Source: Calditrichaceae bacterium (GTDB lineage: Bacteria; Calditrichota; Calditrichia; Calditrichales; JBFXGD01). From it: 64,000 nt of DNA. The position numbers and the translations under genes are program-made. Shown piece by piece: positions 2,881 through 42,001 of this stretch. The stretch lies in assembly GCA_050173015.1 (NCBI GenBank), contig JBFXLE010000017.1, positions 30,806 through 94,805 on the forward strand, in the 5' to 3' direction. The stretch's first letter is position 1; the number at the start of each line of letters is the position of its first letter. Below the pieces are notes generated by a model that saw nothing but the letters and a program-made list of their open reading frames with translations, searched no databases and was not told the origin of the DNA.

Positions 2881-3612
2881 TTATTCTGTACTATCCTGCC
2901 TGCGCTCATCCATGATCCGGCAAGCTTCCATAATCACATTCATCGTTGAGTTACTTATATTCTGTTTTAGATTGATATCTCGTATGTCAAAACTGAAGGC
3001 TCCCGACATCAGTGAAACCAGATCATAAAATGCATCTTCACCTCTTTTATCTTCTGTCTGGGCAGCAAATAAATGCCCGTCTTTGAGATAAATTTGTCCC
3101 TTGATATCACCTTCAATTTTCAAAACACCGGATTTTTTATTCAGATTGAGCATCTGAACAAGTTCAACTATCGAGAGATCACGCAAATCTCCGGAAAACC
3201 CCTTGCGCTCATCACTGATATTTTCAATACTTTTTAATTTTTGAGTCCTGCTTAATAACTCTTCAACACGTTTAAGCAGATCTTTGCGGTCGATCGGCTT
3301 ATTAAGAAATTCATCCGCTCCGGCTCTGAATCCGCGAATTTCCGTTTCCGCGTCGTCAAATGAAGTCAAAAATATAAACGGCACCAATGGAATTTCCGAA
3401 TTTTCCCGTATCATCCAGCATAATTCAATACCATCCATTTGTGGCATCATGATATCTGATATAATCAGATCCGGCTGATGTTTATTCGCGGCTTCGAAAG
3501 CCATTTCACCATTCTCAGCTTCAATTATTTCATATCCCGCTTTAGAAAGACTAATGTTCAATAATTTCAACACATTTGGATTATCATCAACAATCAATAT
3601 TTTAAACGCCAT
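2881..3612 (-). CDS. Response regulator, REC + DUF4388 domain
   Basis: ILIVDD...PDLIISDIMMPQMDG...KP receiver; C-terminal FSGDLRDLSIVELVQMLNLNKKSGVLKI typical of DUF4388. Confidence 0.85.
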   Translation of the reverse strand: MAFKILIVDDNPNVLKLLNISLSKAGYEIIEAENGEMAFEAANKHQPDLIISDIMMPQMDGIELCWMIRENSEIPLVPFIFLTSFDDAETEIRGFRAGADEFLNKPIDRKDLLKRVEELLSRTQKLKSIENISDERKGFSGDLRDLSIVELVQMLNLNKKSGVLKIEGDIKGQIYLKDGHLFAAQTEDKRGEDAFYDLVSLMSGAFSFDIRDINLKQNISNSTMNVIMEACRIMDERRQDSTE

Positions 3613-3634: not shown

Positions 3635-5086
3635 TCAGCTCTTTTTAAAATAATTAACATCTAAATTCCGCACGGCGCCGGCTTCATCAAGTCTCTTAAC
3701 CGGGGTAATATGCGGTGCATTTAAAAGTAAATCCGGCGTTTCATCAATTTCCTTATCAATGGTCAGCATAACATCAACAAAATGATCAAGCATCTCCTTG
3801 CTTTCTGTTTCAGTCGGTTCGATCATTAATGCTTCCTTAACGATCAGGGGAAAATATACCGTCGGCGGATGTATTCCATAGTCCAGAAGCCTCTTTGCTA
3901 TATCAAGAGCCTTTGCCCCTCTTTTCTTCTGGTTTTCCGCGGAAATCACGAATTCATGCATGGTTGGCGCGGCGTATCCGAGATCATAATTCCCGGAGAG
4001 TCTTTTTCGCAGATAATTGGCATTTACGATGGCGTGATCTGATACTTTTCTGAAACCATACCTGCCAACCATCCGGATATAAACATAAGCGCGGACCAGA
4101 AGCGCGAAATTACCAAAATAACTGTGCACGCTGCCGATTGAATCCGGTAGTTCCTCGTTAAGAAAATAGGTATCGTCCTTTTTTTCAACAACCGGGACTG
4201 GAAGGAAAGCCATCAATTTCTCGTTAACGGCTACGGGACCGGTCCCCGGGCCACCGCCACCGTGAGGGGTTGAAAAACTTTTATGCAGATTTAGGTGCAT
4301 AACATCAAATCCGAGATCGGCGGGCCTTACAATTCCGAATAGCGCGTTCATATTGGCCCCGTCCATATACATGAGGGCGTCGATGGAATCGAGCATCTCC
4401 CTGATCTCACGAATTTGATGTTCAAAAATACCGAGCGTGCTCGGATTTGTCAGCATGATACCTGCCACATCATCATTGAGATTGGATTTAAGATCCGCAA
4501 GATCTACTACCCCCTGCGCGGTCGAGCGTATTGTTTTTATTTTGAATCCAGCGATTCGCGCGCTCGCCGGATTTGTCCCGTGGGCGGAATCCGGTACAAG
4601 AATAGTTTTTCGGTTTCTGTTCTTCATTTGATGATATTTTTTCATCAGAAGGAGGCCAACCAATTCACCTTGCGCTCCGGCCGCGGGCTGCAATGTAATC
4701 CCGCTGAATCCGGTCAAATCCATCAAATATTCCTGTAATTCAAAAAGCAGTTTCAGGCCTCCTTGCACCGTTTCATTCGGCTGATCGGGATGTATATTTC
4801 TAAATCCCGGGAGACCCGCTAATTTTTCATTAATTTTAGGATTATATTTCATCGTACATGAACCGAGTGGATAAAAAGCTTTATCAACATGATGATTTAG
4901 ATTCGAAAGTCCGATGTAATGCCTTACAATCTCATTCTCCGCGACTTCGGGCAATCCGGCGGGTTTTTCGCGCAAATAGTTTTTTGGTATAAGATCATCC
5001 GTTTTCATTTCCGGAACATCCGGTTTCGGTAAAACATGCCCAACCCGGCCTTCTTTACTCATTTCAAAAATTAAATTAGTATACAT
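3635..5086 (-). CDS. gcvPB: Glycine dehydrogenase (decarboxylating) subunit 2
   Basis: YPLGSCTMKYNP, LQPAAGAQGE, HLNLHKSFSTPHGGGGPG PLP-lysine motif. Confidence 0.97.
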   Translation of the reverse strand: MYTNLIFEMSKEGRVGHVLPKPDVPEMKTDDLIPKNYLREKPAGLPEVAENEIVRHYIGLSNLNHHVDKAFYPLGSCTMKYNPKINEKLAGLPGFRNIHPDQPNETVQGGLKLLFELQEYLMDLTGFSGITLQPAAGAQGELVGLLLMKKYHQMKNRNRKTILVPDSAHGTNPASARIAGFKIKTIRSTAQGVVDLADLKSNLNDDVAGIMLTNPSTLGIFEHQIREIREMLDSIDALMYMDGANMNALFGIVRPADLGFDVMHLNLHKSFSTPHGGGGPGTGPVAVNEKLMAFLPVPVVEKKDDTYFLNEELPDSIGSVHSYFGNFALLVRAYVYIRMVGRYGFRKVSDHAIVNANYLRKRLSGNYDLGYAAPTMHEFVISAENQKKRGAKALDIAKRLLDYGIHPPTVYFPLIVKEALMIEPTETESKEMLDHFVDVMLTIDKEIDETPDLLLNAPHITPVKRLDEAGAVRNLDVNYFKKS

Positions 5087-5107: not shown

Positions 5108-6142
5108 CTAAGACTTAATCAGCTCCCAATAAGACATCGTCTTATTTAAACCGATCTCCTTAGATGCGCCTAATGCTTTTTTTGCCTTATTTAGCAGATC
5201 GTTCTCATCCGCTACCTCTATATTCTCCATCGGAAATGAGGCGACCCCGAGATTCACAGTTATATTACTTTGTTCAACAAGCTTCTTTTTGGAATTGGAC
5301 ACCGTAGCGATAAATTCGTCATCAAAATAACAGGCGCCGGCAAGCGTCTCCCGAAGCCGTTCGGCTTCCAAAAAGCCTCCCTGATCATCCGTTTGAGGCA
5401 GTATGATGTAAAAATAATCCTCTGTATTCTGTGACAGTATATCTACCGCTCTGGTTTTATTTAAAATCAGATTGGCCATTTTTATTCTAATATAATTGCT
5501 TACCTGATAACCGAGCGTTTCATTCATTCTCTTCACATTGTTGATGCTTACGATTACCAGTGAAATGGCCGTTTTATAACGTAGGGCTCTTAAATATTCC
5601 TCTTTTAAACGTCTTTCAAAAAATGTAAAAGTATAAAGCCCCGTTAGGGGATCAATCAATGTGTCTTTATCTATCTGTTTTGAGCGGCTCAGAAATGACT
5701 CAAGCTCTTTCTGCATGATTTTATTATTGTAAGTCAGTTGTTCGTTTTCGCTCCTCAGCACATACAACATTTTATTGCGGTTCAGTATGGCATTTACCCG
5801 CGCCACCAGTTCCTTGGAGTTGAACGGCTTCAGAAGGTAATCATCCGCGCCCAGTTCAAAACCGGTAATTCGATCTTTGACATCGGTATAATTCGCCGTA
5901 AGGAATACAATTGGAATATCTTTTGTATTCATACTGCTTTTTAGCACTTTACAGGCCTCGAATCCATCCATCACCGGCATCATTCCATCCAGCAGAATCA
6001 AATCCGGCCTGCTGTTTTGCGCGATTTCTATCGCTTCAACACCGTTTGAAGCCTTTTCGACATCAAATTGGTAAAATTTGAAAATCCGCTCAAGCGTATC
6101 AAGCATATCCTCATTATCATCAGCGACAAGAACTCTGGGCAT
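5108..6142 (-). CDS. REC + degenerate GGDEF protein (probable c-di-GMP effector)
   Basis: Intact receiver (LILLDGMMP); DPLTGL GGDEF entry; A-site degenerate (TEDYF) but RAVD I-site present. Confidence 0.8.
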   Translation of the reverse strand: MPRVLVADDNEDMLDTLERIFKFYQFDVEKASNGVEAIEIAQNSRPDLILLDGMMPVMDGFEACKVLKSSMNTKDIPIVFLTANYTDVKDRITGFELGADDYLLKPFNSKELVARVNAILNRNKMLYVLRSENEQLTYNNKIMQKELESFLSRSKQIDKDTLIDPLTGLYTFTFFERRLKEEYLRALRYKTAISLVIVSINNVKRMNETLGYQVSNYIRIKMANLILNKTRAVDILSQNTEDYFYIILPQTDDQGGFLEAERLRETLAGACYFDDEFIATVSNSKKKLVEQSNITVNLGVASFPMENIEVADENDLLNKAKKALGASKEIGLNKTMSYWELIKS

Positions 6143-6154
6143 AAAAACGAATCC

Positions 6155-7483
6155 TTACTTCAAATATTTTTTATAAAATTGAATGTATTTATCCAGTTCC
6201 TCTCTGGTTCGCTGCTCCGTAACCGCAATTAATATTTTGTTCGCGTGACCACTCTTTTTCAAATCAATTCCGGCAAAAATTCCTTCTTTCAACGCGGCTT
6301 TAATTACATCTTCAGCCTTGACCGGCAAACTGAGTGTAAATTCTTTAAAGAACGGGGACTTGGAAGCCATGGATATTCCGGGGATGGCCGTTAACTCTTT
6401 TGCGAGATAATGCGCTTTTTGTAAACACAAACCGGCCACATCTTTTATTCCCTTTTTACCGAGAGTTGACATATAAATCCCTGCCGTAAGCGCCATTAAT
6501 CCGGAATTGGTACAGATATTCGATGTGGCTTTTTCTCTGCGGATGTGCTGTTCCCGTGTTTGCAATGTAAGCACAAACCCCCTTTTTCCGTCTTCATCCT
6601 TGGTGACCCCCGACAATCTTCCAGGAATTTTTCGAACCAGGCTTTCATTTACAGAGAACAATCCCAGAAACGGTCCGCCATAGTTCTGTCCATTCCCCAG
6701 GGACTGTCCCTCCGCAACGGCGATATCGACCCCAAACGCCCCGGGTGTCTTTAATAATCCCAGAGAAGTAGGGTCATAAACCTGAATAATCAGACAATCC
6801 TTTCCGGCCGCGGCATTTTTTATCGCGGCAACATCTTCAAAAAATCCAAAATAATTTGGATGTTGTACAATGACGGCGGCGATCTGATCGTCAATTAGTG
6901 ACTTCAAAGCGGTATGATCGATGGTCAGATCCTTATCCGGTATTACTGTCAATTCGATTTCAGTGTTATTAATATAGGTTTCAATAATCTGTTTGTACCT
7001 GCTGTTGAGAGTGGCAGGTATGAGTATTTTATTCTTACCTGTATGGCCGGCGGCAACCAGGACAGCTTCCGCGAGGGCGGAACCGGCTTCGTACATAGAC
7101 GCGTTTGTGATATCCATTTCAGTGAGTTCGCAGATCATTGATTGAAACTCGTACATCGCCTGAAGATTCCCCTGGCTGACTTCAGGCTGATATGGCGTAT
7201 AAGATGTATAAAATTCGGATCTTGATGTGAGCGCGTCGATGATTGAGGGTATGTAGTGGTCATACGCGCCGCCGCCAAGAAAAGAAACATAAGTCTTGTT
7301 CTTTTCCGCTAACTGCTGTACAATTCTGCTGATACCTAATTCGGATTCGGCTTCCGGAATATTAAAAGTACCTTTGAAGCGCAGATCTTGTGGAATATTC
7401 GACAATAATTCCTCGACATTCTCAAAACCGATCACTTCAAGCATCTCCCTGATATCAGCTTCAGAATTAGAAAGATATGCCAT
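6155..7483 (-). CDS. gcvPA: Glycine dehydrogenase (decarboxylating) subunit 1
   Basis: YTPYQPEVSQGNLQ, LQTREQHIRREKATSNICTN. Confidence 0.97.
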   Translation of the reverse strand: MAYLSNSEADIREMLEVIGFENVEELLSNIPQDLRFKGTFNIPEAESELGISRIVQQLAEKNKTYVSFLGGGAYDHYIPSIIDALTSRSEFYTSYTPYQPEVSQGNLQAMYEFQSMICELTEMDITNASMYEAGSALAEAVLVAAGHTGKNKILIPATLNSRYKQIIETYINNTEIELTVIPDKDLTIDHTALKSLIDDQIAAVIVQHPNYFGFFEDVAAIKNAAAGKDCLIIQVYDPTSLGLLKTPGAFGVDIAVAEGQSLGNGQNYGGPFLGLFSVNESLVRKIPGRLSGVTKDEDGKRGFVLTLQTREQHIRREKATSNICTNSGLMALTAGIYMSTLGKKGIKDVAGLCLQKAHYLAKELTAIPGISMASKSPFFKEFTLSLPVKAEDVIKAALKEGIFAGIDLKKSGHANKILIAVTEQRTREELDKYIQFYKKYLK

Positions 7484-7694
7484 GTGTGTTACCTTTATTT
7501 AATTTAAAACGGTAATTGTATAAAAATCGGATCAAAATCTCTGAATTTCCCCCCAGATTGTGAATCAATTTTGAAATTATGGTTACATTCTGGTTTAATC
7601 CTTAATTTAATATATTAAGCATCAATTAACAAAGGATTTTACCAAAGATTTGAAGGCTGGCGTTCAGGGAAGGGACGAAATCAGGAAATGGGAT

Positions 7695-7730
7695 AAAAAA
7701 AAAGCCCGCGGTTGTTCAATCCGCAGGCTT
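7695..7730 (-). terminator. Intrinsic terminator after gcvH
   Basis: Minus strand AAGCCTGCGG-loop-CCGCGGGC followed by a 9-T tract. Confidence 0.8.
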
Positions 7731-7742
7731 GTTATAAAAATA

Positions 7743-8120
7743 TCAGCCAATATGCTTTGAATAAGCATCCGCATCCATCAGATCTTTTAGTTCGGAAGTA
7801 TCTGAAATTTTGATTTTGACCATCCAGCCTTCCCCGTAAGGATCTTTATTCACCGTCTCCGGCTCATCTTCCAGAGCGCCGTTTATTTCAACGATCTCTC
7901 CTGAAACCGGACTGAACAAATCTGCAACGGCTTTTACAGCTTCAATCGTTCCAAAACTGTCTCCCATACTCACTTTATCGCCAACTTCGGGTAATTCAAC
8001 GAATACAACATCGCCCAATTCACCCTGCGCGTAATCTGTGATTCCAACGACAACAATGTCACCTTCGGTTTTCGTCCATTCATGGTCTTTTGTGTACTTT
8101 AATTCACCCGGGATACTCAT
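7743..8120 (-). CDS. gcvH: Glycine cleavage system H protein
   Basis: KYTKDHEW, GITDYAQGELGD, lipoyl-lysine IEAVKAV; start at ATG 8120 with GGAGG RBS. Confidence 0.97.
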   Translation of the reverse strand: MSIPGELKYTKDHEWTKTEGDIVVVGITDYAQGELGDVVFVELPEVGDKVSMGDSFGTIEAVKAVADLFSPVSGEIVEINGALEDEPETVNKDPYGEGWMVKIKISDTSELKDLMDADAYSKHIG

Positions 8121-8133
8121 ATAAACCTCCAAG

Positions 8134-9480
8134 CTATTCTAATAAGTTGATTCGTTCTAAAAACCCTGTATCAAATTTTCCTTCAATAAATTCCGGTCTT
8201 TTTATTAACTTTTGGTGGAATGGTATAGTGGTCTTAACGCCTTCAATGATAAATTCGTCCAGAGCCCTTCCCAACCTGCTTATGGCTTCCGCGCGGTCCC
8301 TTCCATGAACGATAAGCTTGGCTACCAGCGAATCATAATATGGAGGAATCATATATCTTTGATAGGCATGAGAATCAACCCTTACACCCGGTCCTCCCGG
8401 AATATGAAAGCTTTTAATTTCGCCGGGACTCGGCATGAAATTTTTTTCATAATCTTCCGCGTTAATACGGCACTCTATGGCATGTCCTGAAATTTTAATA
8501 CTTTTTTGAGAATATCCCAGTTTTTCACCCGCGGCAACAAGTATCTGATCTTTTAGAAGATCTTTATCATACACCATTTCTGTAACCGGGTGTTCCACCT
8601 GAATACGAGTATTCATTTCCATAAAATAAAAATTGGAGTCGCTGTCAAGAAGAAATTCGATGGTACCGGCGCCCTCATAGCGGACTTTTTTGGCACCGTT
8701 TACCGCCACATCACCCATCCGTTTTCGCAGATCATCCGTGACTACCACAGATGGAGATTCTTCAATCAGTTTTTGATGACGGCGCTGAATACTGCATTCG
8801 CGCTCCCCAAGATGAACAACATTCCCATACTGATCCGCCATAATCTGAATTTCAATATGTCTGGGATTTTGAATATACTTTTCAAGATAAAGTTCGGGAT
8901 TGCTGAACGCGCCCTGAGCCTCCGCCTGAGCCATCTGATAATTCATCTCGAATTCATTCATATTTCTGACGATCCGCATCCCGCGTCCGCCACCACCGGC
9001 AACTGCTTTTAGAATCACCGGGAATCCGATATCGGCAACCAGTTTCCTGCCGGATTCAATGCTTTTCAAGACACCTTCGCTTCCGGGCACAACCGGGACA
9101 CCTGCTTTTATCATCAGTGATTTAGCTTCAGATTTATTTCCCATTTTACGGATAACATCCGCGCTCGGGCCGATAAATTTTATATTACTGGAATTGCACA
9201 TATCAGCGAATTCCGCGTTTTCGGCAAGAAAACCGTAACCCGGGTGTATTGCCTCAGCGCCTGTTATCTCAGCCGCTGAAATGATTCTTACCGGGTTCAA
9301 ATAACTCTGTCCGCTTTGGGCGGGTCCGATACAAATGGCTTCGTCTGCAAACCGAACATGCAGGGAATCTTCATCTGCCTCGGAATGCACGGCGACGGTA
9401 TGAACGCCCAGTTCCTTACAGGCGCGAATTATCCGCAATGCAATTTCACCACGATTCGCTATAAGAATCTTCTTGAACAA
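8134..9480 (-). CDS. accC: Acetyl-CoA carboxylase biotin carboxylase subunit
   Basis: [39 protein letters not shown]; probable TTG start at 9480. Confidence 0.97.
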
Positions 9481-9494
9481 CGGGCCTCCCTTTC

Positions 9495-10034
9495 TCAACG
9501 TTCCAGCGCCTGCTCCAATTCACTCAGGATTTTGCGCAATTGTTCATTCTCGGTTTTTAATTGTGCAATTTGTTTTTCCAAATCTGAATTTCCGGAACTT
9601 ATAATTCGATCATTGTAACGAATGTTTTTTGTACCGGCATGATATAAATTTAGAATCTTTAACCAATCATTACAAGCAGAAATATAACTGCTGTTCGGGA
9701 ATTTTTTTTTAAAATCATCAAACCGTTCCCGCGCGTCTTGATAATTAAAAAACGGGTTTTCGGATTCAGAATTAACCCTAAGGCGCGCTATTCTGAAAGC
9801 CGCGTCGTCACTGTAAGGCTCATCCGGATATTTATGCAGATATTTTTGCAATAATGATTCCGCTTCTGAATACTTTTTACCGGCGATCAACTTATCCGCT
9901 TTTTCAATAAGCATCGCCTGCAACTGCTGATCCCGTCCGGATGATTCCCTGGAAACAGGTGAACAGTTTACGAAAATTAATCCACAAATGCTAAAAATCC
10001 AAATGTGCTTAATTATTCCTTTTATCAAAAACAT
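9495..10034 (-). CDS. Putative TPR/coiled-coil lipoprotein
   Basis: Hydrophobic leader ending FVNC; TPR-like [16 protein letters not shown] and [11 protein letters not shown]-terminal coiled coil. Confidence 0.65.
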
Positions 10035-10944
10035 ACGTGTTGCCCGTCTTCTTTTTAGCCAGTTTTTTTAGCTCTGTGGCAATGGTTGAAACTTCTGCGA
10101 TTGATTCAATTATTCTGTTTTCATTTGTAACAATGGCAATCGATATACTCACAAACGGGAACTTTTGCATTTTGCCCTGCCGGTTTTTTGAAAGAATAAA
10201 TCCTGTTTCCTTGTCTTCATCCCGGTAAAAATTATGAATTTCACGCTCCATAATATCAGTGATAGATAGACAAATCGATTCAACCATATCCGGCGTCGAT
10301 ACAATAACAAAATCATCTCCGCCCACATGCCCGACAAAATCATCCTGATTGCCAAATCTGTTGATCGCATCCACCAGTAAACGTCCCGTATAAATAAGCA
10401 TTTTATCACCGGCCACAAAACCGTACTTATCATTATAAGCTTTAAAATTATCAAGATCCGCATAGGCCACCGCGAACAATTTTCCGCCTTCGATCCGTTT
10501 CTGGATCACGGTCTGAATGGCGTTATTTCCCGGCAGATACGTCAGCGGATTAGCATCAAGATTTTGCTGATAACGGCGCAGGACGGCTTCGATGCGTTTT
10601 TCGATTTCCTTAGCATCCATCCCTTTTTCCAGATATTCATCAACGCCCTGTTCAAAGCTGGTCAGCTTATCATTCAGGTCGTGGGATGCCGTCAGCATGA
10701 TAATCGGCAAATTCATATATTTGGGAATCTGCCGCAGACGCTTGCAGACCTCGTGACCATCCGGCTCCGGCATACTCAGATCCAATAAAAGAAGCTGTGG
10801 TTGTACCTGATCAATCCTGTCCAGGGCATCTTGTCCGCTTATTCCAAGTTCTACTTTGTATCCGAACCGTTTGATGGTTTCCTCCCACAAGAATCTTTCA
10901 TCATCCCGATCATCAACAAGAAATATTTTGATGTGTTTATTCAC
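10009..10944 (-). CDS. Response regulator diguanylate cyclase (REC-GGDEF)
   Basis: REC with LLLLDLSMP; NPLTYLPGN, DLDNFKAYND, GGDDF. Confidence 0.9.
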   Translation of the reverse strand: MNKHIKIFLVDDRDDERFLWEETIKRFGYKVELGISGQDALDRIDQVQPQLLLLDLSMPEPDGHEVCKRLRQIPKYMNLPIIMLTASHDLNDKLTSFEQGVDEYLEKGMDAKEIEKRIEAVLRRYQQNLDANPLTYLPGNNAIQTVIQKRIEGGKLFAVAYADLDNFKAYNDKYGFVAGDKMLIYTGRLLVDAINRFGNQDDFVGHVGGDDFVIVSTPDMVESICLSITDIMEREIHNFYRDEDKETGFILSKNRQGKMQKFPFVSISIAIVTNENRIIESIAEVSTIATELKKLAKKKTGNTYVFDKRNN

Positions 10945-12570: not shown

Positions 12571-13071
12571 TCATGATTTTTCTATGATGAATAAGACCTG
12601 GTTGTACTCAACAGGTTGGGCATTTTCGATTAAAATTTTCACTAGTTTACCGGAAACTTCCGATTCAATCTCATTCATTAATTTCATCGCTTCAACAATA
12701 CATAAGACCTGGCCAACCGCTATCTGTTGACCAACACTGACATAAGGTTCCGCATCCGGTGAGGGCGCGCCGTAAAAAGTACCCACCATCGGTGAACGCA
12801 CCTCATAGGTATTGGTCTTTACCGCTTCCACAGGTCGCGCGGCTATTTCGTCCAGAGAAGCTGCTCCGGAAGGAGCTGGGTACTGTTGAACCTGCGTATT
12901 CTGATGAGCCGCGGAAGGGAACATCTGTACATCGGGCTTATAAATCATGCCGGCATTTGAAGAAACGCTTTTAGTAATCCGGACCTTTTTACCGTCTTCT
13001 TCAATTTCCAGTTCCCCGATATTCGAGTTTTCCACCACTTTTATCAGCTGACGTATTTCTTTCAGATCCAT
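12571..13071 (-). CDS. accB: Biotin carboxyl carrier protein
   Basis: SPMVGTFY, EAMKLMN biotinylation motif. Confidence 0.97.
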   Translation of the reverse strand: MDLKEIRQLIKVVENSNIGELEIEEDGKKVRITKSVSSNAGMIYKPDVQMFPSAAHQNTQVQQYPAPSGAASLDEIAARPVEAVKTNTYEVRSPMVGTFYGAPSPDAEPYVSVGQQIAVGQVLCIVEAMKLMNEIESEVSGKLVKILIENAQPVEYNQVLFIIEKS

Positions 13072-13079
13072 TGCTCCTC

Positions 13080-14162
13080 CTATTTATTTTCAGCAGAAAG
13101 ATTGAATAATTTGTCCAGAAGTTCCTTTATTTCAACATGAAGGCGCTTTTTATAAACACAACCATTGATCTCGTGTTTACCAATAAAATTAAAATTTAGG
13201 TTTTTTATCACATCATCGCAATAAATTATTACAGGAATATCCGAATTTGTTCTCTCATCAGGCCAAATCATATCCAAAATCTTTTCGGACGAACCATAAT
13301 CCAGGATTAGAAAATCAGGCGCTGATTTTGCCAAAAAGCGGATGGTAAACTCTTCAGGTGATGTCACTTTGGAATCAATTCCCATGTTTTTTAAGAATCG
13401 GTTCGTCATAAGCCGCGCGATCCGGTTGGGGTCAACGATAAGCGCTTTTAACTGCTCATCCCGGCAACTTTCCTGTTTTTTTATTTCATCTTTCAGCTTT
13501 GAAGCATCCAGCAGGAGATTCGTGATATTCGCGATAAATTTCCCTTTTCCGATATCATCGCGGTCTTCAAAACGGAATGAAAGAGATGAACTACAGGCCA
13601 GTTGAAGAAAAGCATCCTCCTTAATAATACTGCCATAGGTGGCGCCAACAACTTTCCCTGAGGCAATAACAACTTCTCCGACCCGAATCCGGTTCGCGTT
13701 GTAAAAATGAAAAATCCCGCTGCGGCGGCCCTGTTCTTTTTCCTGAGCCTCAGAAAAGAAAAAATCGATGGTCGTAAGCGTATTGCGGAGACCGGCTTCA
13801 TGTATTCTCAGATTGATTCGTAGCGAGGTTTCATACGCATCGGCGGGCAGATGAAGCACATCCGATGCTCCCTGCTTAAAAAAATCTTCCGTCGATTGCA
13901 TGTGATCTTTCTCCGTTGTAATTCCCATTACGGGCGATCCGATCAGTTCCTGAAGGGCGAGCACGGCAGGGACAAGATGTTTCAGAACCTTTTCCTTTAG
14001 ATTATCCGCAACAATAACCGCGTCCGGTTTTGACTGGGCGCACTTTTTTTTGAGTTCAAACAAGCTCGTAACCTGCGAACAATCGAAACTGAATTCTTTT
14101 AAATTGATCAACAGATTATCAATTTCCTTATTTGGACCTGCCAATACATGAATTTTTTTCAT
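13080..14162 (-). CDS. Atypical REC-like / DUF4388 / REC-like protein
   Basis: Degenerate N-terminal receiver (GASDVLHLP), central RSGIFHF...GKVVGATYG...EDAFLQL DUF4388-like segment, C-terminal ALIVD...PDFLILDY receiver-like. Confidence 0.55.
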   Translation of the reverse strand: MKKIHVLAGPNKEIDNLLINLKEFSFDCSQVTSLFELKKKCAQSKPDAVIVADNLKEKVLKHLVPAVLALQELIGSPVMGITTEKDHMQSTEDFFKQGASDVLHLPADAYETSLRINLRIHEAGLRNTLTTIDFFFSEAQEKEQGRRSGIFHFYNANRIRVGEVVIASGKVVGATYGSIIKEDAFLQLACSSSLSFRFEDRDDIGKGKFIANITNLLLDASKLKDEIKKQESCRDEQLKALIVDPNRIARLMTNRFLKNMGIDSKVTSPEEFTIRFLAKSAPDFLILDYGSSEKILDMIWPDERTNSDIPVIIYCDDVIKNLNFNFIGKHEINGCVYKKRLHVEIKELLDKLFNLSAENK

Positions 14163-14167
14163 AATTT

Positions 14168-15037
14168 TTAATATTCTTTATTTTTTTCGTAAATCCTGGA
14201 AAATTCATCAATCAATACCGGCAATTTCTCATCACTCAGAAGCGTGGTATTCAAACGCGCGTGTTTCAGTTTAAGCATATCGATTTCAGTGGTAATCATT
14301 TCTTCTTTAAAGTATGGCGCGTGATTGATCATATTACCATCAGGCGCGATAAGCGCTGAACCGCCCCAGAACACAAGACCGTCTTCCACCCCGACCCTGT
14401 TGGCGAAAGCAACATAAGAAGTACTCGTAATCGCAAGCGCCTGCAGAAGCGTCTCCCATGCGCGCACATTCTCAGGTTTGGGATTTTCATCTATTCCCCT
14501 TGTAAGCGCGGCTGAACTTACCAGTAATACCGACGCGCCGTCTTGAGCGAGGATCACTCCCGAAGTCGGGTGCCAGATATCCTCGCAAATCAACAGACCA
14601 AAACGGCCAAATTTTGAATCAAACGCCCTGAAGCGGTTTCCCGAACTAAAATACCTTTCTTCCTCAAAAACTCCGTATGTCGGAAGATACACTTTGCGGT
14701 GCCGTGTCAGCAGTTCTCCGTTCTCAAAAAAAAGCGCGGTATTGTAAATTTCATACCGGTCATTTAATTCAACCATTCCGGCCATGATCGATATATGCTT
14801 GCTGAGTTTTTTCAGTTCGTTAAATTTCGTGTCATTTACCGGAACCGCCACATCGTAAACGGCGTCCTTCAGGGAATATCCCGTTAAAGACAATTCCGGG
14901 AATACGATGATATCATTTTTTTCTTCAATCGCCTTATTTATTTCTGAATAATGCTTTTCGAGATTTTTATCAATATCGCCAAGCACAGTATTTATTTGCG
15001 TCATGGCGACATGTATTTTTTGTTTATAAAACTTCAT
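14168..15037 (-). CDS. Carbon-nitrogen hydrolase (nitrilase superfamily; similar to glutaminase domain of NAD synthetase)
   Basis: Catalytic triad motifs VFPEL, RKVYLP, LICEDIW; ANRVG. Confidence 0.88.
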   Translation of the reverse strand: MKFYKQKIHVAMTQINTVLGDIDKNLEKHYSEINKAIEEKNDIIVFPELSLTGYSLKDAVYDVAVPVNDTKFNELKKLSKHISIMAGMVELNDRYEIYNTALFFENGELLTRHRKVYLPTYGVFEEERYFSSGNRFRAFDSKFGRFGLLICEDIWHPTSGVILAQDGASVLLVSSAALTRGIDENPKPENVRAWETLLQALAITSTSYVAFANRVGVEDGLVFWGGSALIAPDGNMINHAPYFKEEMITTEIDMLKLKHARLNTTLLSDEKLPVLIDEFSRIYEKNKEY

Positions 15038-15051
15038 AACAGTGTTTATTC

Positions 15052-16413
15052 TTAATTATTGATACCCTTTGAAGGCGCGGGAATACGTCCGCCACGGCCG
15101 ATAAACTTGGAATTATCGAGTTTGGAGATCGGCATAATCGGCGCGATTCCGAGAAGTCCTCCATAATCGGCGGCCTGCCCCACATCCATACCCGGAACAG
15201 GGATTACCCTGACAGCCGTCGTTTTGTTATTTACCATACCGATGGCGCATTCATCCGCTATAAGTCCGGCAATTGTCGCCGCGGGAGTATCTCCGGGAAT
15301 GGCAACCATATCTATACCCACACTACAGACACTTGTCATTGCTTCCAGTTTTTCGATTGTAATATGTCCCATCTGCGCGGCTTTGATCATGCCTTCGTCT
15401 TCAGAAACGGGGATAAAAGCTCCGCTCATTCCGCCCACATAGGAGGATGCCATCAATCCGCCCCTTTTAACTGAATCATTCAGCAGCGCGAGAGCAGCAG
15501 TCGTTCCCGTGGCGCCCACATCTTCGAGCCCCATTGCTTTTAAAATATCCGCGACACTGTCACCCGGCATGGGTGTCGGCGCGAGAGATAAATCAACGAT
15601 ACCAAATGGAATATTCTGCATCGACGCTACTTTTCTACCCACAAACTCACCGGCCCGTGTAATCTTGAATGCCATTCTGCGAATCCGCTCACCGAGTGAA
15701 GCAAAATCCAGATCCGGCGCTTCCTTGACCGCTCTTAAAATAACCCCCGGACCGCTTATGCCGACATTTACTACTATATCCGGCTCGCTCACTCCGTGAA
15801 AAGCACCGGCAATAAACGGATTATCTTCCGGCGCGTTAGCAAATACAACAAGCTTTGCGCAGCCAATGCCCTGTCTGTCAGCGGTCTTTTCAGCCGTTTG
15901 TTTTATAATCTTTCCCATCAGGCTCACGGCATCCATGTTGATTCCGGCTTTTGTTGTCGCCACATTCACCGATGAACAGACATGTTTTGTCCGGGCCAGC
16001 GCTTCGGGAATGGCATGAATCAGATTCAGATCGCCTTTCGAAAACCCTTTCTGGACTAAGGCGGAGAATCCGCCGAGATAATCAACCCCCAGTTCATCAG
16101 CGGCCTTATCAAGAACTTCCGCGATTTCTATAAAGTCTTCCATAAAATATCCGTCGCCAACGATTGCCACGGGAGTGACAGATATTCTTTTGTTGGCGAT
16201 GGAAATTCCATACTCAGATTCAATTTTTTGGGCTGTTTTTACATGCTCCGCCGCGACCCGCATTATTTTTTCATAGATATTACTTTTCAACTGACTGAGA
16301 TTATCACTGGTACAATCTTTTAAATTGATACCCATCGTCACCGTGCGAATATCAAAATGCTCAACCTCTGTCATTCGAATGGTTTCTAATATTTCTTCCA
16401 TTGCTATCGGCAT
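15052..16413 (-). CDS. PFL-like family protein (UPF0210/DUF711)
   Basis: [49 protein letters not shown]. Confidence 0.9.
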
Positions 16414-16416
16414 AAT

Positions 16417-16872
16417 CTACACCCTATGCATTGCATTAAAAATTTCTTCGTGCTGGACAATTACTTTCAAATCAAACTCTTCTCCTGCTCGGATCATCTC
16501 TGATTTTATAAACTCAAAATCAACATCACACTCTGAGATATCCACCAGCAGCATTACGGTAAAAAATTCCTGCAGAATTTTTTGTGATAAATCAATAATA
16601 TTACAAGTATGCTTTGCTAAAATGCCGGTCAATCCTGAAAGAATTCCGGGCCGGTCTTTACCAAACGCGGTAATGATAATCCGGTTTTTGGATCTTTTGG
16701 CACTTTCTTTCTGCAGAGATTTCAAATCCTGTGTTACATTACTCTCTTTATCGATCTTACTAACCGCATTTTTAACGACTGTTTCAATGACTTCGGGATT
16801 TGCGGCTTTTCCCAGCTGTTTAAGTGCTTCTTCAGCAAGTTTACGGATATCGCTTTCAGTTATATTTGCCAT
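16417..16872 (-). CDS. ACT-domain protein (UPF0237) with ~60-aa N-terminal extension
   Basis: IIITAFGKDRPGI...NIIDLSQKI...QHEEIFNAMHRV; normally paired with UPF0210; ATG at 16872. Confidence 0.88.
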   Translation of the reverse strand: MANITESDIRKLAEEALKQLGKAANPEVIETVVKNAVSKIDKESNVTQDLKSLQKESAKRSKNRIIITAFGKDRPGILSGLTGILAKHTCNIIDLSQKILQEFFTVMLLVDISECDVDFEFIKSEMIRAGEEFDLKVIVQHEEIFNAMHRV

Positions 16873-16913
16873 AATCAATTTCCAGACAGTTAATGTAAGT
16901 ATATTTAAATTTA

Positions 16914-17240
16914 TTATTTACCTTTTGAATCATCGAGAGATTTCAGCTTTGGATCTATCAGCGCTGCATCCACATCTACCCTGTCAACGATGGCCACTAC
17001 AGCCGCTTCAATGCTCACAGAAGAAGGATCATCCGGGGAGATTGCCTGCCGCGCTGCATGGCCGTAAGCGCAAATGACCACTTCTCCAACACCGGCCCCC
17101 AATAAGTCTGCTACGACAACCACATCTGTTAGCGGCGCTTTTTTCAGATTTAACGGATTTACAATCAGGAAACGTAAGTTTTTTAAATTATCCGTTTTCT
17201 TTGTCGCCCAAACCGAACCGACTACTTTTCCTAAAAACAA
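16914..17240 (-). CDS. Bacterial microcompartment vertex (pentamer) protein, EutN/CcmL family
   Basis: FLGKVVGSVWATKK...VADLLGAGVGEVV...GHAAR...IEAAVVAIVD; probable TTG start at 17240. Confidence 0.92.
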   Translation of the reverse strand: MFLGKVVGSVWATKKTDNLKNLRFLIVNPLNLKKAPLTDVVVVADLLGAGVGEVVICAYGHAARQAISPDDPSSVSIEAAVVAIVDRVDVDAALIDPKLKSLDDSKGK

Positions 17241-17386
17241 AATGTGTCCCTTCCCGTTATGATTTCTTCGCTCTGTTCCATCTCTGAAATCTTCCAAAAA
17301 TCAGGAATATTAAAGGAATCTAATGTATTTTACATTTATTCGCAACCATTATATCTAAAGAGATTCGGAACATAAGTATATTAAAT

Positions 17387-17986
17387 TTACTGACTTAGAT
17401 ATAGATTGTTATTAATAATAAAATCATAAACGGCATCCGATACAAGACTGCGAAAGGAACTTTTCTTCCTGATGCGATGTCTGATGTGCGTCGATGAAAT
17501 ATCTATGGTCGGGCTGTCAACATATAGAAGATTTTTATGCTGGAAGGGTTCTGTAAATGGAGAAGATGACCGGTTGAATACAACCAGGTAAGCCATGCGA
17601 AGTATCTGATGCGGTTCCTTCCATGAGAGGAATTCCTTGAGATTATCCGCGCCTATGAAATAATACAGGTCCTTGTCCGGGTATTTTTCTTTGAAGTATT
17701 GGACCGTATCTACGGTATATGAGATTCCTTTTCTGTCCAACTCAATGGAACTGATCTCAAATTGCGGATACCTATTTAGAGCAAGGCGAAGCATTTCCAT
17801 TCTTACTTCACCCGGGGTTATATCCTTACGTTTACCAAAGGGATGTCTGTAATTTGGGATAAAAACGGTTTTTTGAAGACCGAGCGAATCGGTCAGCCAC
17901 TCAGCAACCACAAGATGTCCGAGATGAACGGGATCAAAAGTCCCGCCAAAGAGTCCAAGCCCTTTGGCATCTTTCTTATCACTCAT
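17387..17986 (-). CDS. nadD: Nicotinate-nucleotide adenylyltransferase
   Basis: GGTFDPVHLGH, SYTVDT, IGADN, ISSTHIR. Confidence 0.95.
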   Translation of the reverse strand: MSDKKDAKGLGLFGGTFDPVHLGHLVVAEWLTDSLGLQKTVFIPNYRHPFGKRKDITPGEVRMEMLRLALNRYPQFEISSIELDRKGISYTVDTVQYFKEKYPDKDLYYFIGADNLKEFLSWKEPHQILRMAYLVVFNRSSSPFTEPFQHKNLLYVDSPTIDISSTHIRHRIRKKSSFRSLVSDAVYDFIINNNLYLSQ

Positions 17987-35066: not shown

Positions 35067-35552
35067 TTAGCCTGCTTTAATCGTCAAGAGACGCATTTTA
35101 TAAAAATCTGATCTACTGCACGTAAACATCACCTTAAAAAGCAATTCGAAGGGAATTTTTTCATCCCCCTGGATAATCACCTCATGGGTGAATTCCTTAC
35201 CGATATCTATTTCGAGATCCCGTTCCTTCTGAGCATATTCAGCCAGCTTACTGAACAATGATGCTATGATCATCTGATCTTCCGGAATATCTGCAATCGT
35301 CGCGATTACATTATCGTTAACGAGAATTTCATCTTTCGATATCGAAACGCTTAATTCCTTTTTTGGCTTTTCACCCTGAACTGAAGTCGGTAATCTCAAA
35401 ACTTCCGATGGTGTAACCAGCGCCCCTTCTGTGGAAAACGATTTTAAAAGAAACAGAAGGATAATGGTCATCATGTCCATCATCGAGTTCATATTGAGAG
35501 TACCTTTTTCCTCTGCAAGGTGTTTCTTTGATTTTGACGGTTGGTAAGCCAT
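35067..35552 (-). CDS. ExbD/TolR family protein (AglS-like)
   Basis: LNMNSMMDMMTIILLFLLKSFS TM with conserved Asp26; IIQGDEKIPFELLFKVMFT. Confidence 0.88.
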   Translation of the reverse strand: MAYQPSKSKKHLAEEKGTLNMNSMMDMMTIILLFLLKSFSTEGALVTPSEVLRLPTSVQGEKPKKELSVSISKDEILVNDNVIATIADIPEDQMIIASLFSKLAEYAQKERDLEIDIGKEFTHEVIIQGDEKIPFELLFKVMFTCSRSDFYKMRLLTIKAG

Positions 35553-35577
35553 ATAATGAACGCTCCGTTATTGTCTT

Positions 35578-36129
35578 CTATAAAATACTGCCAAAATTTA
35601 TTTCGGGGAATAAGGGCAATATCGCATTTTCGTCTTCATAGGTTTGTGAGGTATCCATAATTTTGATGATAACCTGGTATTCGATTTCCCGGGAAGCCGT
35701 TATCACCGCGCGATTTTCGTCCTTGAAACCTTTTCCCTTTACTTTCTTTTTTATTTCGATAAGCTTTTCTTTTAGCTTATCATAGTCATACGTTCCGTCT
35801 TCTTTCACGGCAACTGTCGGACCGTCTCCTTCATCTCCGGCGAGTAAAGTCTGGGCATTGCCAATGGTTATACCATCTTTGGTAATCGCAATCTTTAACC
35901 CCAGCTTGAGTTCCTTCTCTTTTACTTCATTCTGTTCACCTTCACCGGCGCCAGCGTCTCCGACAGATTTACTTGGAGGCACATTTATTTCGATCACTCC
36001 AAGCTTTACCCATTCGGCGCTCGCGATAAGCAACGGAATCAGCACAACCATCAGATTCATGACAGGTCTGATATCCAGCTCCATGTCTACTTCTTCGCCT
36101 TTACGGCGAAGTGAAGGTTTATATGCCAT
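35578..36129 (-). CDS. ExbD/TolR family protein (AglQ-like), Asp-to-Asn variant
   Basis: ELDIRPVMNLMVVLIPLL TM; ITASREIEYQVIIKIMD. Confidence 0.85.
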   Translation of the reverse strand: MAYKPSLRRKGEEVDMELDIRPVMNLMVVLIPLLIASAEWVKLGVIEINVPPSKSVGDAGAGEGEQNEVKEKELKLGLKIAITKDGITIGNAQTLLAGDEGDGPTVAVKEDGTYDYDKLKEKLIEIKKKVKGKGFKDENRAVITASREIEYQVIIKIMDTSQTYEDENAILPLFPEINFGSIL

Positions 36130-36149
36130 TTTTTATTTTCCTTCGTCTC

Positions 36150-36809
36150 TTATCTGTTGCCGGTTATCAAGTTGATCAGTTTTACCAGATGTTCATCTAA
36201 TTCATCGATGATGGTACTTGTTTTGCTTGTGATATAAGTATAGACCATCAGAGTCGGGATCGCCACCATCAAACCAAATATGGTTGTATTCATAGCGGTT
36301 GAAATACCTTTGGCCAGAAGTTTACTTTTTTCTGATTCAGGAACACCCTCGCTACCCACGGCCGCGAATGAAAGAATAAGTCCATAAATCGTGCCCATCA
36401 AACCTGTCAGTGTCGCGACGTTTGCAAGCATTGAAAGATATCCGGTCCGTTCTCTCAATTTTGGAATAACTTCAAGAGTACCTTCGTCAACAGCATTCTG
36501 GATGGCTCTGAAATCAAGCGTTTCACTTTCATTGGCCCGTTTTAATCCACGCAGCACAACAAACGGCAGAGCTTTTTGCTTACCTTTTTCACATAATTCT
36601 ATTGCCCGTTCAATATTGCCTCCCGCAACCAGCTTTCTTACTTCAGTCATGAATTTATCAGCATTGACGTTTGAACGAACGACAATATAATATATTCTCT
36701 CAATCGAAATTGCAGCCGCTATAGCAGCAAACAAGGCGATCGCATACATGTAAAATGATCCTTCAGCACTAAGTGCGAATGCATCACCAAATTGAGTTAA
36801 GAATAACAT
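36150..36809 (-). CDS. MotA/TolQ/ExbB proton channel protein (AglR-like)
   Basis: Three TMs; ATLTGLMGTIYGLI and GISTAMNTTIFGLMVAIP. Confidence 0.92.
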   Translation of the reverse strand: MLFLTQFGDAFALSAEGSFYMYAIALFAAIAAAISIERIYYIVVRSNVNADKFMTEVRKLVAGGNIERAIELCEKGKQKALPFVVLRGLKRANESETLDFRAIQNAVDEGTLEVIPKLRERTGYLSMLANVATLTGLMGTIYGLILSFAAVGSEGVPESEKSKLLAKGISTAMNTTIFGLMVAIPTLMVYTYITSKTSTIIDELDEHLVKLINLITGNR

Positions 36810-36854
36810 AAACTAATCCCTCCTTAAAATCATTTTCAGCCTATCTAATGGTAT

Positions 36855-37187
36855 TTATTTATGCACATTTAATAATTGCTTGATGTTAATCTGATCTACC
36901 GGTTCTTTACTGTTTTTAAAATCGAATACAAATTTTTCACCTTCGCCGACAATCTCGCGGTAAAAGGATTTTTCGAGGTTTGTATCATCGAACTCTGGTT
37001 TTATTCGGTCGGAAAACAGGGTAACTTGAGGTTTTTCTATAGTTATTTTTATTTCGCTTACTTCCAGCTCAATCACATCATCGGTCGTCTGGTTTTGCGT
37101 TCTTACCTGCGGATTGTTCGTATCCTGCGCGAGGAGACCGCCCGCGAGCAAAAAACTCAAAATAATTACCAAAAAAACAACTCTCAT
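36855..37187 (-). CDS. Small exported protein, GltF/CglF-like
   Basis: Signal peptide; IKITIEKPQVTLFSDRIKPEFDDTNLEKSFYREIV resembles the KP...R...F...L...SF..I pattern recalled for GltF-family proteins; position between TPR and exbB genes. Confidence 0.55.
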   Translation of the reverse strand: MRVVFLVIILSFLLAGGLLAQDTNNPQVRTQNQTTDDVIELEVSEIKITIEKPQVTLFSDRIKPEFDDTNLEKSFYREIVGEGEKFVFDFKNSKEPVDQINIKQLLNVHK

Positions 37188-37199
37188 AAACCTATTCCT

Positions 37200-41957: not shown

Positions 41958-42001
41958 AATATTTTTTCCAAAATTGACAGTGTTTTTATGAATCGATCAA
42001 A

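Follow-up and report, generated by a model that had tools for sequence, protein, structure and literature searches.

Why would the gene for a vertex protein of a bacterial microcompartment (BMC) stand among housekeeping genes, at the head of a run that goes on to encode a small ACT-domain protein of the UPF0237 type, the orphan enzyme UPF0210 (DUF711) and a nitrilase-superfamily C-N hydrolase, and do the proteins that follow it belong with a shell? The run in question lies on the minus strand of a 64-kb stretch of a Calditrichaceae genome, which was analysed at its full length and is referred to here as the window. Taken together, our data support the view that it is a satellite locus of a 'fragmented'-type BMC. 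In addition, the ACT protein was found to carry an N-terminal extension with the look of a targeting tag. This extension is the best argument for encapsulation, which we regard as plausible for UPF0210/DUF711; that it tethers the ACT-DUF711 pair to or into the shell is a possibility we take seriously, while stopping somewhat short of calling it probable.

An earlier, sequence-only reading of this DNA had described an EutN-headed run of four closely spaced genes in a window free of other shell (BMC-H/T) and aldehyde dehydrogenase genes, and both parts of this description held. Using Pfam on the 57 minus-strand open reading frames (ORFs) of the window, we recovered the order EutN/CcmL, ACT/UPF0237, DUF711/UPF0210 and C-N hydrolase, with gaps of 41, 3 and 14 nt (Table 1). 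The same search found no PF00936 or aldehyde dehydrogenase domain among the 57 ORFs, and a local search of the whole window with a BMC-domain query gave no match. The window therefore holds a single shell class, as is the mark of a satellite locus: one PF03319 gene and no PF00936 gene. A single shell class was likewise found in 32 of the 33 related loci with an EutN gene described below. The shared direction and spacing of the four genes say little in this setting, because the tight spacing runs on beyond the hydrolase (5 nt to the next gene, encoding a 360-residue protein, and a further 8 nt to accB, the biotin carboxyl carrier protein gene, at 12571-13071) and because all the annotated genes of the 64 kb lie on the minus strand, where the GC skew is negative in each 2-kb bin. 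The neighbours are housekeeping genes, with bamD and nadD upstream, accB downstream, and secA, the ATP synthase operon, parAB and aspS farther away. Going by the source organisms of near-identical and related proteins, the window belongs to Calditrichaceae, phylum Calditrichota.

The gene that heads the run encodes a full-length member of its family. Its product scored 86.1 bits against PF03319 (cutoff 25), with residues 1-86 covering profile positions 1-83 of 83, and its solved homologues include 4i7a (E 4.2e-14), 5v74 (E 5.3e-13) and 2qw7 (E 8.9e-12), the first of which we take to be GrpN from the locus of a glycyl radical enzyme microcompartment (GRM). Across 30 homologues the mean column identity of EutN is 68%, compared with 54% for ACT, and the N-termini align at the TTG start, a pattern of conservation that indicates purifying selection. 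Because EutN is so strongly conserved, both a chance adjacency and a decaying EutN gene were rejected. On the opposite strand, a 250-residue ORF (16325-17077, plus strand) that runs across EutN and ACT is a shadow frame of those two genes and was not counted as a gene.

To follow the run in relatives, 25 ACT homologues were aligned and used to scan species-representative genomes. This yielded 77 matching stretches, 44 of which encode a relative: 34 of Calditrichota type (L001-L034), one from a metagenome-assembled genome of Bacteroidota (L035) and nine from Ignavibacteria/Melioribacter (L036-L044). One locus labelled Caldisericaceae (L018) has the gene order of Calditrichota and was counted with them. 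Neighbouring genes were scored by tblastn with the window's proteins together with an EutN profile search. EutN lies upstream of ACT on the same strand in 33 of the 34 Calditrichota loci, at a distance of less than about 370 nt in 32 of them and of 2.1 kb in the other (L025). DUF711 begins 4-6 nt after ACT in every one of the 33 Calditrichota loci that continue so far (L032 ends inside ACT), and the C-N hydrolase then follows wherever there is room for it (29/29), five contigs ending earlier. The upstream side is more fluid. NadD precedes EutN in 19 of 33 loci, while five have less than 600 nt of upstream sequence and nine, with at least 1 kb of it, have no NadD or BamD match. In the eight of these nine that were checked by Pfam, the upstream genes differ, and include genes for Por_Secre_tail proteins, AhpC, a citrate transporter and HicA. 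In all nine NadD-less loci the neighbourhood breaks ahead of EutN, and in none of them at the EutN-ACT junction, so that the EutN-ACT-DUF711 block moves as a unit.

The start of this unit is marked by a promoter-like element, which in the window lies 76 nt before the EutN start. Of 34 sequences (the window and 33 loci), 21 have the pattern TTGnnA-N16-18-TA[G/C]ATT at a distance of 31-76 nt from the EutN start, on its upstream side, compared with a mean of 0.08 and a maximum of 2 in 500 shuffles, and it occurs in loci with either kind of upstream neighbour. Because the pattern was read off these same related sequences, the count of 21 is a description rather than a test. A generic sigma-70 scan of the window did not list the element. 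The generic scans for promoters and terminators did not rise above shuffled sequence (20 versus 14.7±4.1 and 10 versus 6.9±2.4, respectively), and no convincing terminator was seen within the run. An Rfam search over positions 13900-17600 revealed no riboswitch or other RNA family at E values up to 1.

A direct link to microcompartment genes came from L025 (positions 7581-10465 of that locus). Here the order is nadD, EutN, a gene for a 436-residue protein with Complex1_51K, Fer4 and RnfC_N domains, a gene for a 181-residue BMC-T protein with two PF00936 domains, the extended ACT and DUF711, so that two further genes are inserted between EutN and ACT. Pfam identifies only the domains of the 436-residue protein; from their architecture we take it to be PduS-like. 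No other locus among the 44 has a BMC-domain (PF00936) gene, and L025 is the exception to the single shell class found in the other EutN-bearing loci.

We then compared the locus with published microcompartment catalogues. In the type species Caldithrix abyssi, the extended ACT gene Cabys_2140 (P0091) adjoins Cabys_2141, so that the adjacency holds there as well, and Cabys_2141 is listed as a BMC-P of subclade waterBlue2 and as 'fragmented (sat)' (Sutter et al. 2021, Supplementary Data 1). Together with the conserved adjacency of EutN and ACT and the BMC genes inside the cluster of L025, this entry supports the satellite-locus status that the sequence-only reading had proposed. The other shell genes of C. 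abyssi are BMC-P Cabys_2350, 2351 and 2352, BMC-H Cabys_340 and Cabys_345, and BMC-T Cabys_349; all its shell genes are marked 'fragmented (sat) (omitted)', the loci lying outside the typed set (Sutter et al. 2021). The available part of Axen et al. (2014) describes in C. abyssi a metabolosome locus with an incomplete core of aldehyde dehydrogenase, a pta-type phosphotransacylase and PduS, and in Melioribacter roseus seven BMC-P genes in five loci.

The nearest described systems are the FRAG loci (FRAG3 of Calditrichaeota and FRAG4 of Marinimicrobia), in which shell genes are scattered, BMC-P genes are in surplus, and no signature enzyme or encapsulation peptide is recognised; the orthologue of the window's BMC-P in C. 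abyssi is itself listed in this fragmented group. The likeness is closest for FRAG4, which has a waterBlue2 BMC-P and just one non-shell protein typical of BMCs, an ACT whose N-terminal domain is novel; an ACT hidden Markov model (HMM) in the same work is named act_1_acimic3 (Sutter et al. 2021). There are differences, however. FRAG3 was described with a DeoC/LacD aldolase beside BMC-P rather than with ACT-DUF711, and the FRAG4 ACT N-terminus is said to have no homologues, whereas that of the window has homologues in two phyla.

These comparisons also bear on whether the vertex protein still belongs to a shell at all. It could instead be a BMC-P paralogue that has left shell capping and now serves ACT-DUF711 as a pentameric partner or scaffold, independently of any BMC. 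Cabys_2141 is a fourth BMC-P lying outside the contiguous Cabys_2350-2352, surplus BMC-P paralogues have been taken to hint at a further role (Sutter et al. 2021), and EutN is very strongly conserved and always first in the operon, all of which would fit such a change of function. Nevertheless, subclade waterBlue2 occurs in the main loci of the ACI, MIC3 and FRAG8 microcompartments (Sutter et al. 2021), EutN stands beside PduS-like and BMC-T genes in L025, the Ignavibacteria manage without an adjacent EutN copy, and comparison with solved homologues revealed no sequence feature that separates this EutN from shell pentamers. We therefore consider this scaffold role improbable, and return to the reading in which the gene is a satellite shell gene.

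If the vertex gene marks a satellite locus, what links the proteins behind it to a shell? The ACT gene had previously been taken for an ordinary UPF0237 gene, which proved incorrect: it encodes 151 residues, of which the first 62 form an N-terminal extension. Members of UPF0237 are ordinarily about 90 residues long, and both the 90-position family model NF001220 (100.5 bits, cutoff 74) and the 91-residue solved homologue 1zpv (E 6.6e-15) match the ACT part only, over residues 63-151 and 64-150, respectively. The extension is present on ACT in all 44 related loci (34 Calditrichota, one Bacteroidota and nine Ignavibacteria/Melioribacter). A structure predicted with AlphaFold2 from an alignment of 38 Calditrichota and Ignavibacteria sequences placed two helices at residues 6-23 and 26-42, with a predicted local distance difference test (pLDDT) score of 65-72, followed by a stretch below 50 (residues 43-60) and a confident ACT fold (88-97). 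The helices have hydrophobic moments of 0.46 and 0.45 (z of about 1.7 against shuffles), with z above 1.64 in 24 of the 38 sequences for each helix, whereas residues 43-62 are not amphipathic (z 0.14) and fall in alignment columns without consensus. Within the helical part, E6, I9, L20 and G21 are at least 90% conserved across the 38 sequences and A24 is invariant.

This layout resembles the one that Sutter et al. (2021) give for encapsulation peptides, as well as the 70-80-residue helical N-terminal extensions on a flexible linker that were proposed as targeting signals in BUF3 (Supplementary Data 2 of the same work): one or more terminal helices predicted to be amphipathic, a poorly conserved flexible linker, and absence from the ordinary homologues compared. 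It differs from them in having two helices of 17-18 residues, arranged as a HEAT-like pair, rather than one of 15-20, and in sitting on a regulatory ACT subunit and not on an enzyme, with a targeting role that is predicted only. When the 62-residue extension was used in a phmmer search of 1.8 billion representatives, 25 matches were obtained, 9 of the 12 examined being multi-repeat HEAT proteins. These matches fall repeatedly on query residues from about 3 to 36 and resemble single HEAT or PBS-lyase-HEAT repeats; ACT-extension proteins, whole or in fragments, account for three of the 25. Against the PDB, nothing beyond weak matches to designed helical repeats and PP2A-A was obtained. Being HEAT-like in these searches, the extension may not be a canonical encapsulation tag but a helical hairpin.

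Several other searches touch the extension. A profile search with the 38-sequence alignment had only Calditrichota-type proteins among the best 120 matches listed, and says nothing of its range. A complex prediction with four EutN copies and ACT residues 1-62 returned a score of 0.00 and 'no answer', and speaks neither for nor against a contact. As leads only, Atlas suggests clusters of ACT proteins of about 150 residues in Acidobacteriota, Spirochaetota and Myxococcota. Three of the HEAT-repeat matches (P0243, P0245 and P0246) also carry a NACHT NTPase domain; they match the extension through the repeat motif, for which a helical-hairpin pattern in common is a more probable cause than shared ancestry.

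Table 1. Positions of the genes, protein regions and promoter-like element of the locus, numbered from the first letter of the window
Feature	Position	Strand	Basis
Promoter-like element TTGCGA-N17-TAGATT	17317-17345	-	
BMC-P, EutN/CcmL family vertex pentamer protein, 108 aa, TTG start	16914-17240	-	PF03319
ACT protein (UPF0237 type), 151 aa	16417-16872	-	PF13740 (ACT_6) on residues 64-139
ACT residues 1-42, two predicted amphipathic helices, conserved part of the extension	16747-16872	-	AlphaFold2, alignment
ACT residues 43-62, variable linker, predicted disordered	16687-16746	-	pLDDT, alignment
ACT domain, residues 63-151 and stop codon	16417-16686	-	NF001220, PF13740, 1zpv, pLDDT 88-97
DUF711/UPF0210 protein, 453 aa	15052-16413	-	PF05167, E 1.2e-183
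Stand-alone nitrilase-superfamily (C-N hydrolase) protein, 289 aa	14168-15037	-	PF00795, E 2.5e-45
360-aa protein gene	13080-14162	-	no Pfam family above threshold

The enzyme that such a module might bring along is a conventional member of its family. DUF711 scored 704.3 bits against NF003700 (cutoff 440), with residues 4-453 on model positions 3-452, and carries no terminal extension of its own. It shares family membership, adjacency and order with the ordinary UPF0237/UPF0210 pair (1zpv and 2ha9), both proteins scoring above their NCBIfam cutoffs; what sets the window's pair apart is the length of its ACT (151 versus about 90 residues), the BMC-P gene before it and the C-N hydrolase after it. 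A solved structure of UPF0210 has been available since 2006. In a literature search on DUF711, UPF0210 and UPF0237, none of the papers addresses the function of the family, judging by titles and the openings of abstracts, and the current version of a Blastocystis preprint no longer mentions DUF711.

According to the available part of Lundin et al. (2015), DUF711 belongs to the ten-stranded beta/alpha-barrel group of ribonucleotide reductases (RNR) and glycyl radical enzymes, and shares that barrel with glycyl radical enzymes of the pyruvate formate-lyase (PFL) type, a point of likeness to GRMs alongside the homology of the vertex protein to 4i7a, its nearest solved BMC-P. The same source finds no candidate radical glycine in SP0239, a solved DUF711 member, which it judges most likely not to be a glycyl radical enzyme. 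In addition, Pfam identified no activating radical-SAM gene between 12.5 and 19.5 kb of the window. On these two grounds we rejected membership of the locus in the GRM class.

Does the linkage between EutN and ACT-DUF711 reflect a shared compartment, or only shared expression? A serious contender, to which we nonetheless give less than even weight, is that an ordinary satellite shell gene, the BMC-P gene, happens to be expressed as part of a housekeeping operon, that ACT-DUF711 is cytosolic, and that the extension serves a purpose unrelated to BMCs, such as oligomerisation, contact with DUF711 or binding of another partner. Satellite loci holding only shell genes are common (Sutter et al. 2021, and the available part of Axen et al. 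2014), and a number of our results point the same way and weigh against a role for the extension at the shell. The BMC-P/ACT/UPF0210 adjacency on which the sequence-only reading was built, and which stands in 33 of 34 Calditrichota loci, does not extend to the Ignavibacteria/Melioribacter group: in all nine of its loci the extended ACT is followed by DUF711 with no EutN or BMC-domain gene within 10 kb. Their neighbours are instead an acyl-CoA dehydrogenase, YidD, two weakly TPR-like proteins, LemA and a TPM-domain protein, with no adjacent hydrolase. In the Bacteroidota locus the extended ACT lies beside an enoyl-CoA hydratase and lacks DUF711. Even within Calditrichota, L029 keeps the extension without an EutN gene, nadD ending 80 nt before ACT. 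The Calditrichota loci are moreover related, so that the 33 of 34 are not independent events, and since the conserved order runs as far as accB downstream and often takes in nadD and bamD upstream, part of it may be synteny inherited within a single phylum.

The proteins themselves add to these points. DUF711 is nearly unchanged with respect to its Streptococcus homologue 2ha9 (E 2.8e-158), as would fit a cytosolic housekeeping enzyme. The extension looks like a HEAT-type hairpin in sequence and not like a canonical encapsulation peptide. When every ORF of the window and of the 44 loci was searched with a profile of it, the 45 ACT genes alone were matched; the 25 phmmer matches included no recognisable BMC cargo; and encapsulation-peptide HMMs gave no match in FRAG genomes (Sutter et al. 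2021).

A purely housekeeping setting fits less well with other observations. In the nine NadD-less loci the breakpoint lies before EutN every time and spares the junction with ACT, and it is exactly at this junction that BMC accessory genes were inserted in L025. Independently, FRAG4 was noted for an ACT whose N-terminus is unusual, and an ACT HMM was tied to ACI and MIC3 (Sutter et al. 2021). Finally, both cultured species that bear the extension, C. abyssi and M. roseus (whose extended ACT lies in L043), have shell genes (Sutter et al. 2021, and the available part of Axen et al. 2014).

The last gene of the run raises a further alternative. The nitrilase-family gene had been counted as a member of the locus; this was upheld in Calditrichota, where it follows in 29 of 29 loci, and did not hold in Ignavibacteria, where no such gene lies near ACT-DUF711, so that its linkage to the pair is confined to Calditrichota. 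Its best NCBIfam match is the N-terminal (glutaminase) half of the NAD+ synthase model PRK13981 (E 3.9e-47; model positions 3-249 of 546). The identification of the protein as a glutamine-dependent NAD+ synthase (NadE) was rejected, as its score of 160.8 bits lies far below the cutoff of 479 and the protein ends at residue 289 with no synthetase domain. Residues E48, K115 and C151 are invariant in 30 sequences and are presumably the Glu-Lys-Cys triad of the nitrilase superfamily.

It is conceivable, then, that the run is a cluster for NAD metabolism, with ACT-DUF711 and EutN as passengers or with DUF711 using ammonia released by the hydrolase. Such a cluster would account for the glutaminase-like match and the invariant Glu-Lys-Cys set, for the constant position of the hydrolase after DUF711, and for the adjacency of NadD in 19 of 33 loci. 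On the other hand, the NAD+ synthase score falls short, NadD is absent upstream in nine loci, the Ignavibacteria have ACT-DUF711 without a nearby hydrolase, and neither EutN nor the ACT extension is explained. We accordingly give this idea little credence.

In the reading we prefer, that of a satellite locus whose ACT subunit may contact the shell, a spare BMC-P gene would be transcribed from its own promoter together with the ACT-DUF711 pair and, in Calditrichota, with the C-N hydrolase. An amphipathic module of two helices, attached through a flexible linker, would have been added to the ACT subunit. DUF711 would bind ACT, and the module would tie the resulting complex to the shell or drive it into the lumen, so that DUF711, which has no tag of its own, could enter by riding on its partner. 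DUF711, with the barrel of the RNR/PFL structural group and no radical glycine, would be the encapsulated catalyst, for which the ACT domain could act as a small-molecule sensor. A wider claim, which on present evidence seems rather unlikely, would make ACT-DUF711 the cargo still missing from fragmented BMCs in Calditrichota, Ignavibacteria and allied phyla, perhaps even their signature enzyme. Its recruitment would then rest on a targeting module of a new kind, a HEAT-like hairpin that sits with its flexible linker on the regulatory ACT subunit and not on the enzyme, and in Calditrichota the pair may dock on a dedicated fourth vertex pentamer.

Parts of this picture were already on record: the C. 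abyssi BMC-P and an ACT association were catalogued in 2021 (Sutter et al. 2021). The conserved operon with DUF711, the homologous extension in two phyla and the PduS-like/BMC-T insertion were not found in the searchable text of the literature; the terms '05167' and 'DUF711' are not in the text of the Sutter et al. (2021) supplement, whose locus diagrams are images in which a DUF711 gene may be drawn. Neither a cargo nor a targeting signal is recognised for the FRAG BMCs, which are spread over numerous phyla that have received little study (Sutter et al. 2021). The enzymes of UPF0210/DUF711, for their part, have an RNR/PFL-like barrel and occur widely, and the literature search turned up no function for the family. 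As a conserved vertex-protein operon and a tag-like extension confined to this lineage group come together here, these two open questions become one testable hypothesis, and Caldithrix abyssi and Melioribacter roseus are cultured organisms in which it can be tested. If the cargo reading is true, it would give the orphan UPF0210 its first cellular context and the FRAG microcompartments their first candidate enzyme. If the genes are only co-expressed, what is left is still a well-documented satellite locus and a newly described form of ACT subunit.

A few features of the surrounding window were also recorded. Atlas puts the gene directly after the hydrolase close to clusters of PatA_N/DUF4388 response regulators (score 0.95, no more than a lead); this gene was found in only 6 of the 29 loci that reach that far. 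In the minus-strand stretch 35067-44614, two huge TPR proteins (1585 and 870 residues) are encoded directly upstream of an ExbB/ExbD/ExbD set, beside which lie ORFs of 110 and 361 residues, both without a Pfam family. Downstream of the run, accB is separated from accC (biotin carboxylase, 8134-9498, minus strand) by three genes, which encode a HAMP histidine kinase, a response-regulator/GGDEF protein and a TPR lipoprotein. Beyond accC come the glycine-cleavage genes, also on the minus strand: gcvH (7743-8132) and the two P-protein subunits (6155-7483 and 3635-5086). This set is split by a second response-regulator/GGDEF gene (5108-6142), and a Response_reg plus DUF4388 gene (2881-3612) comes after it.

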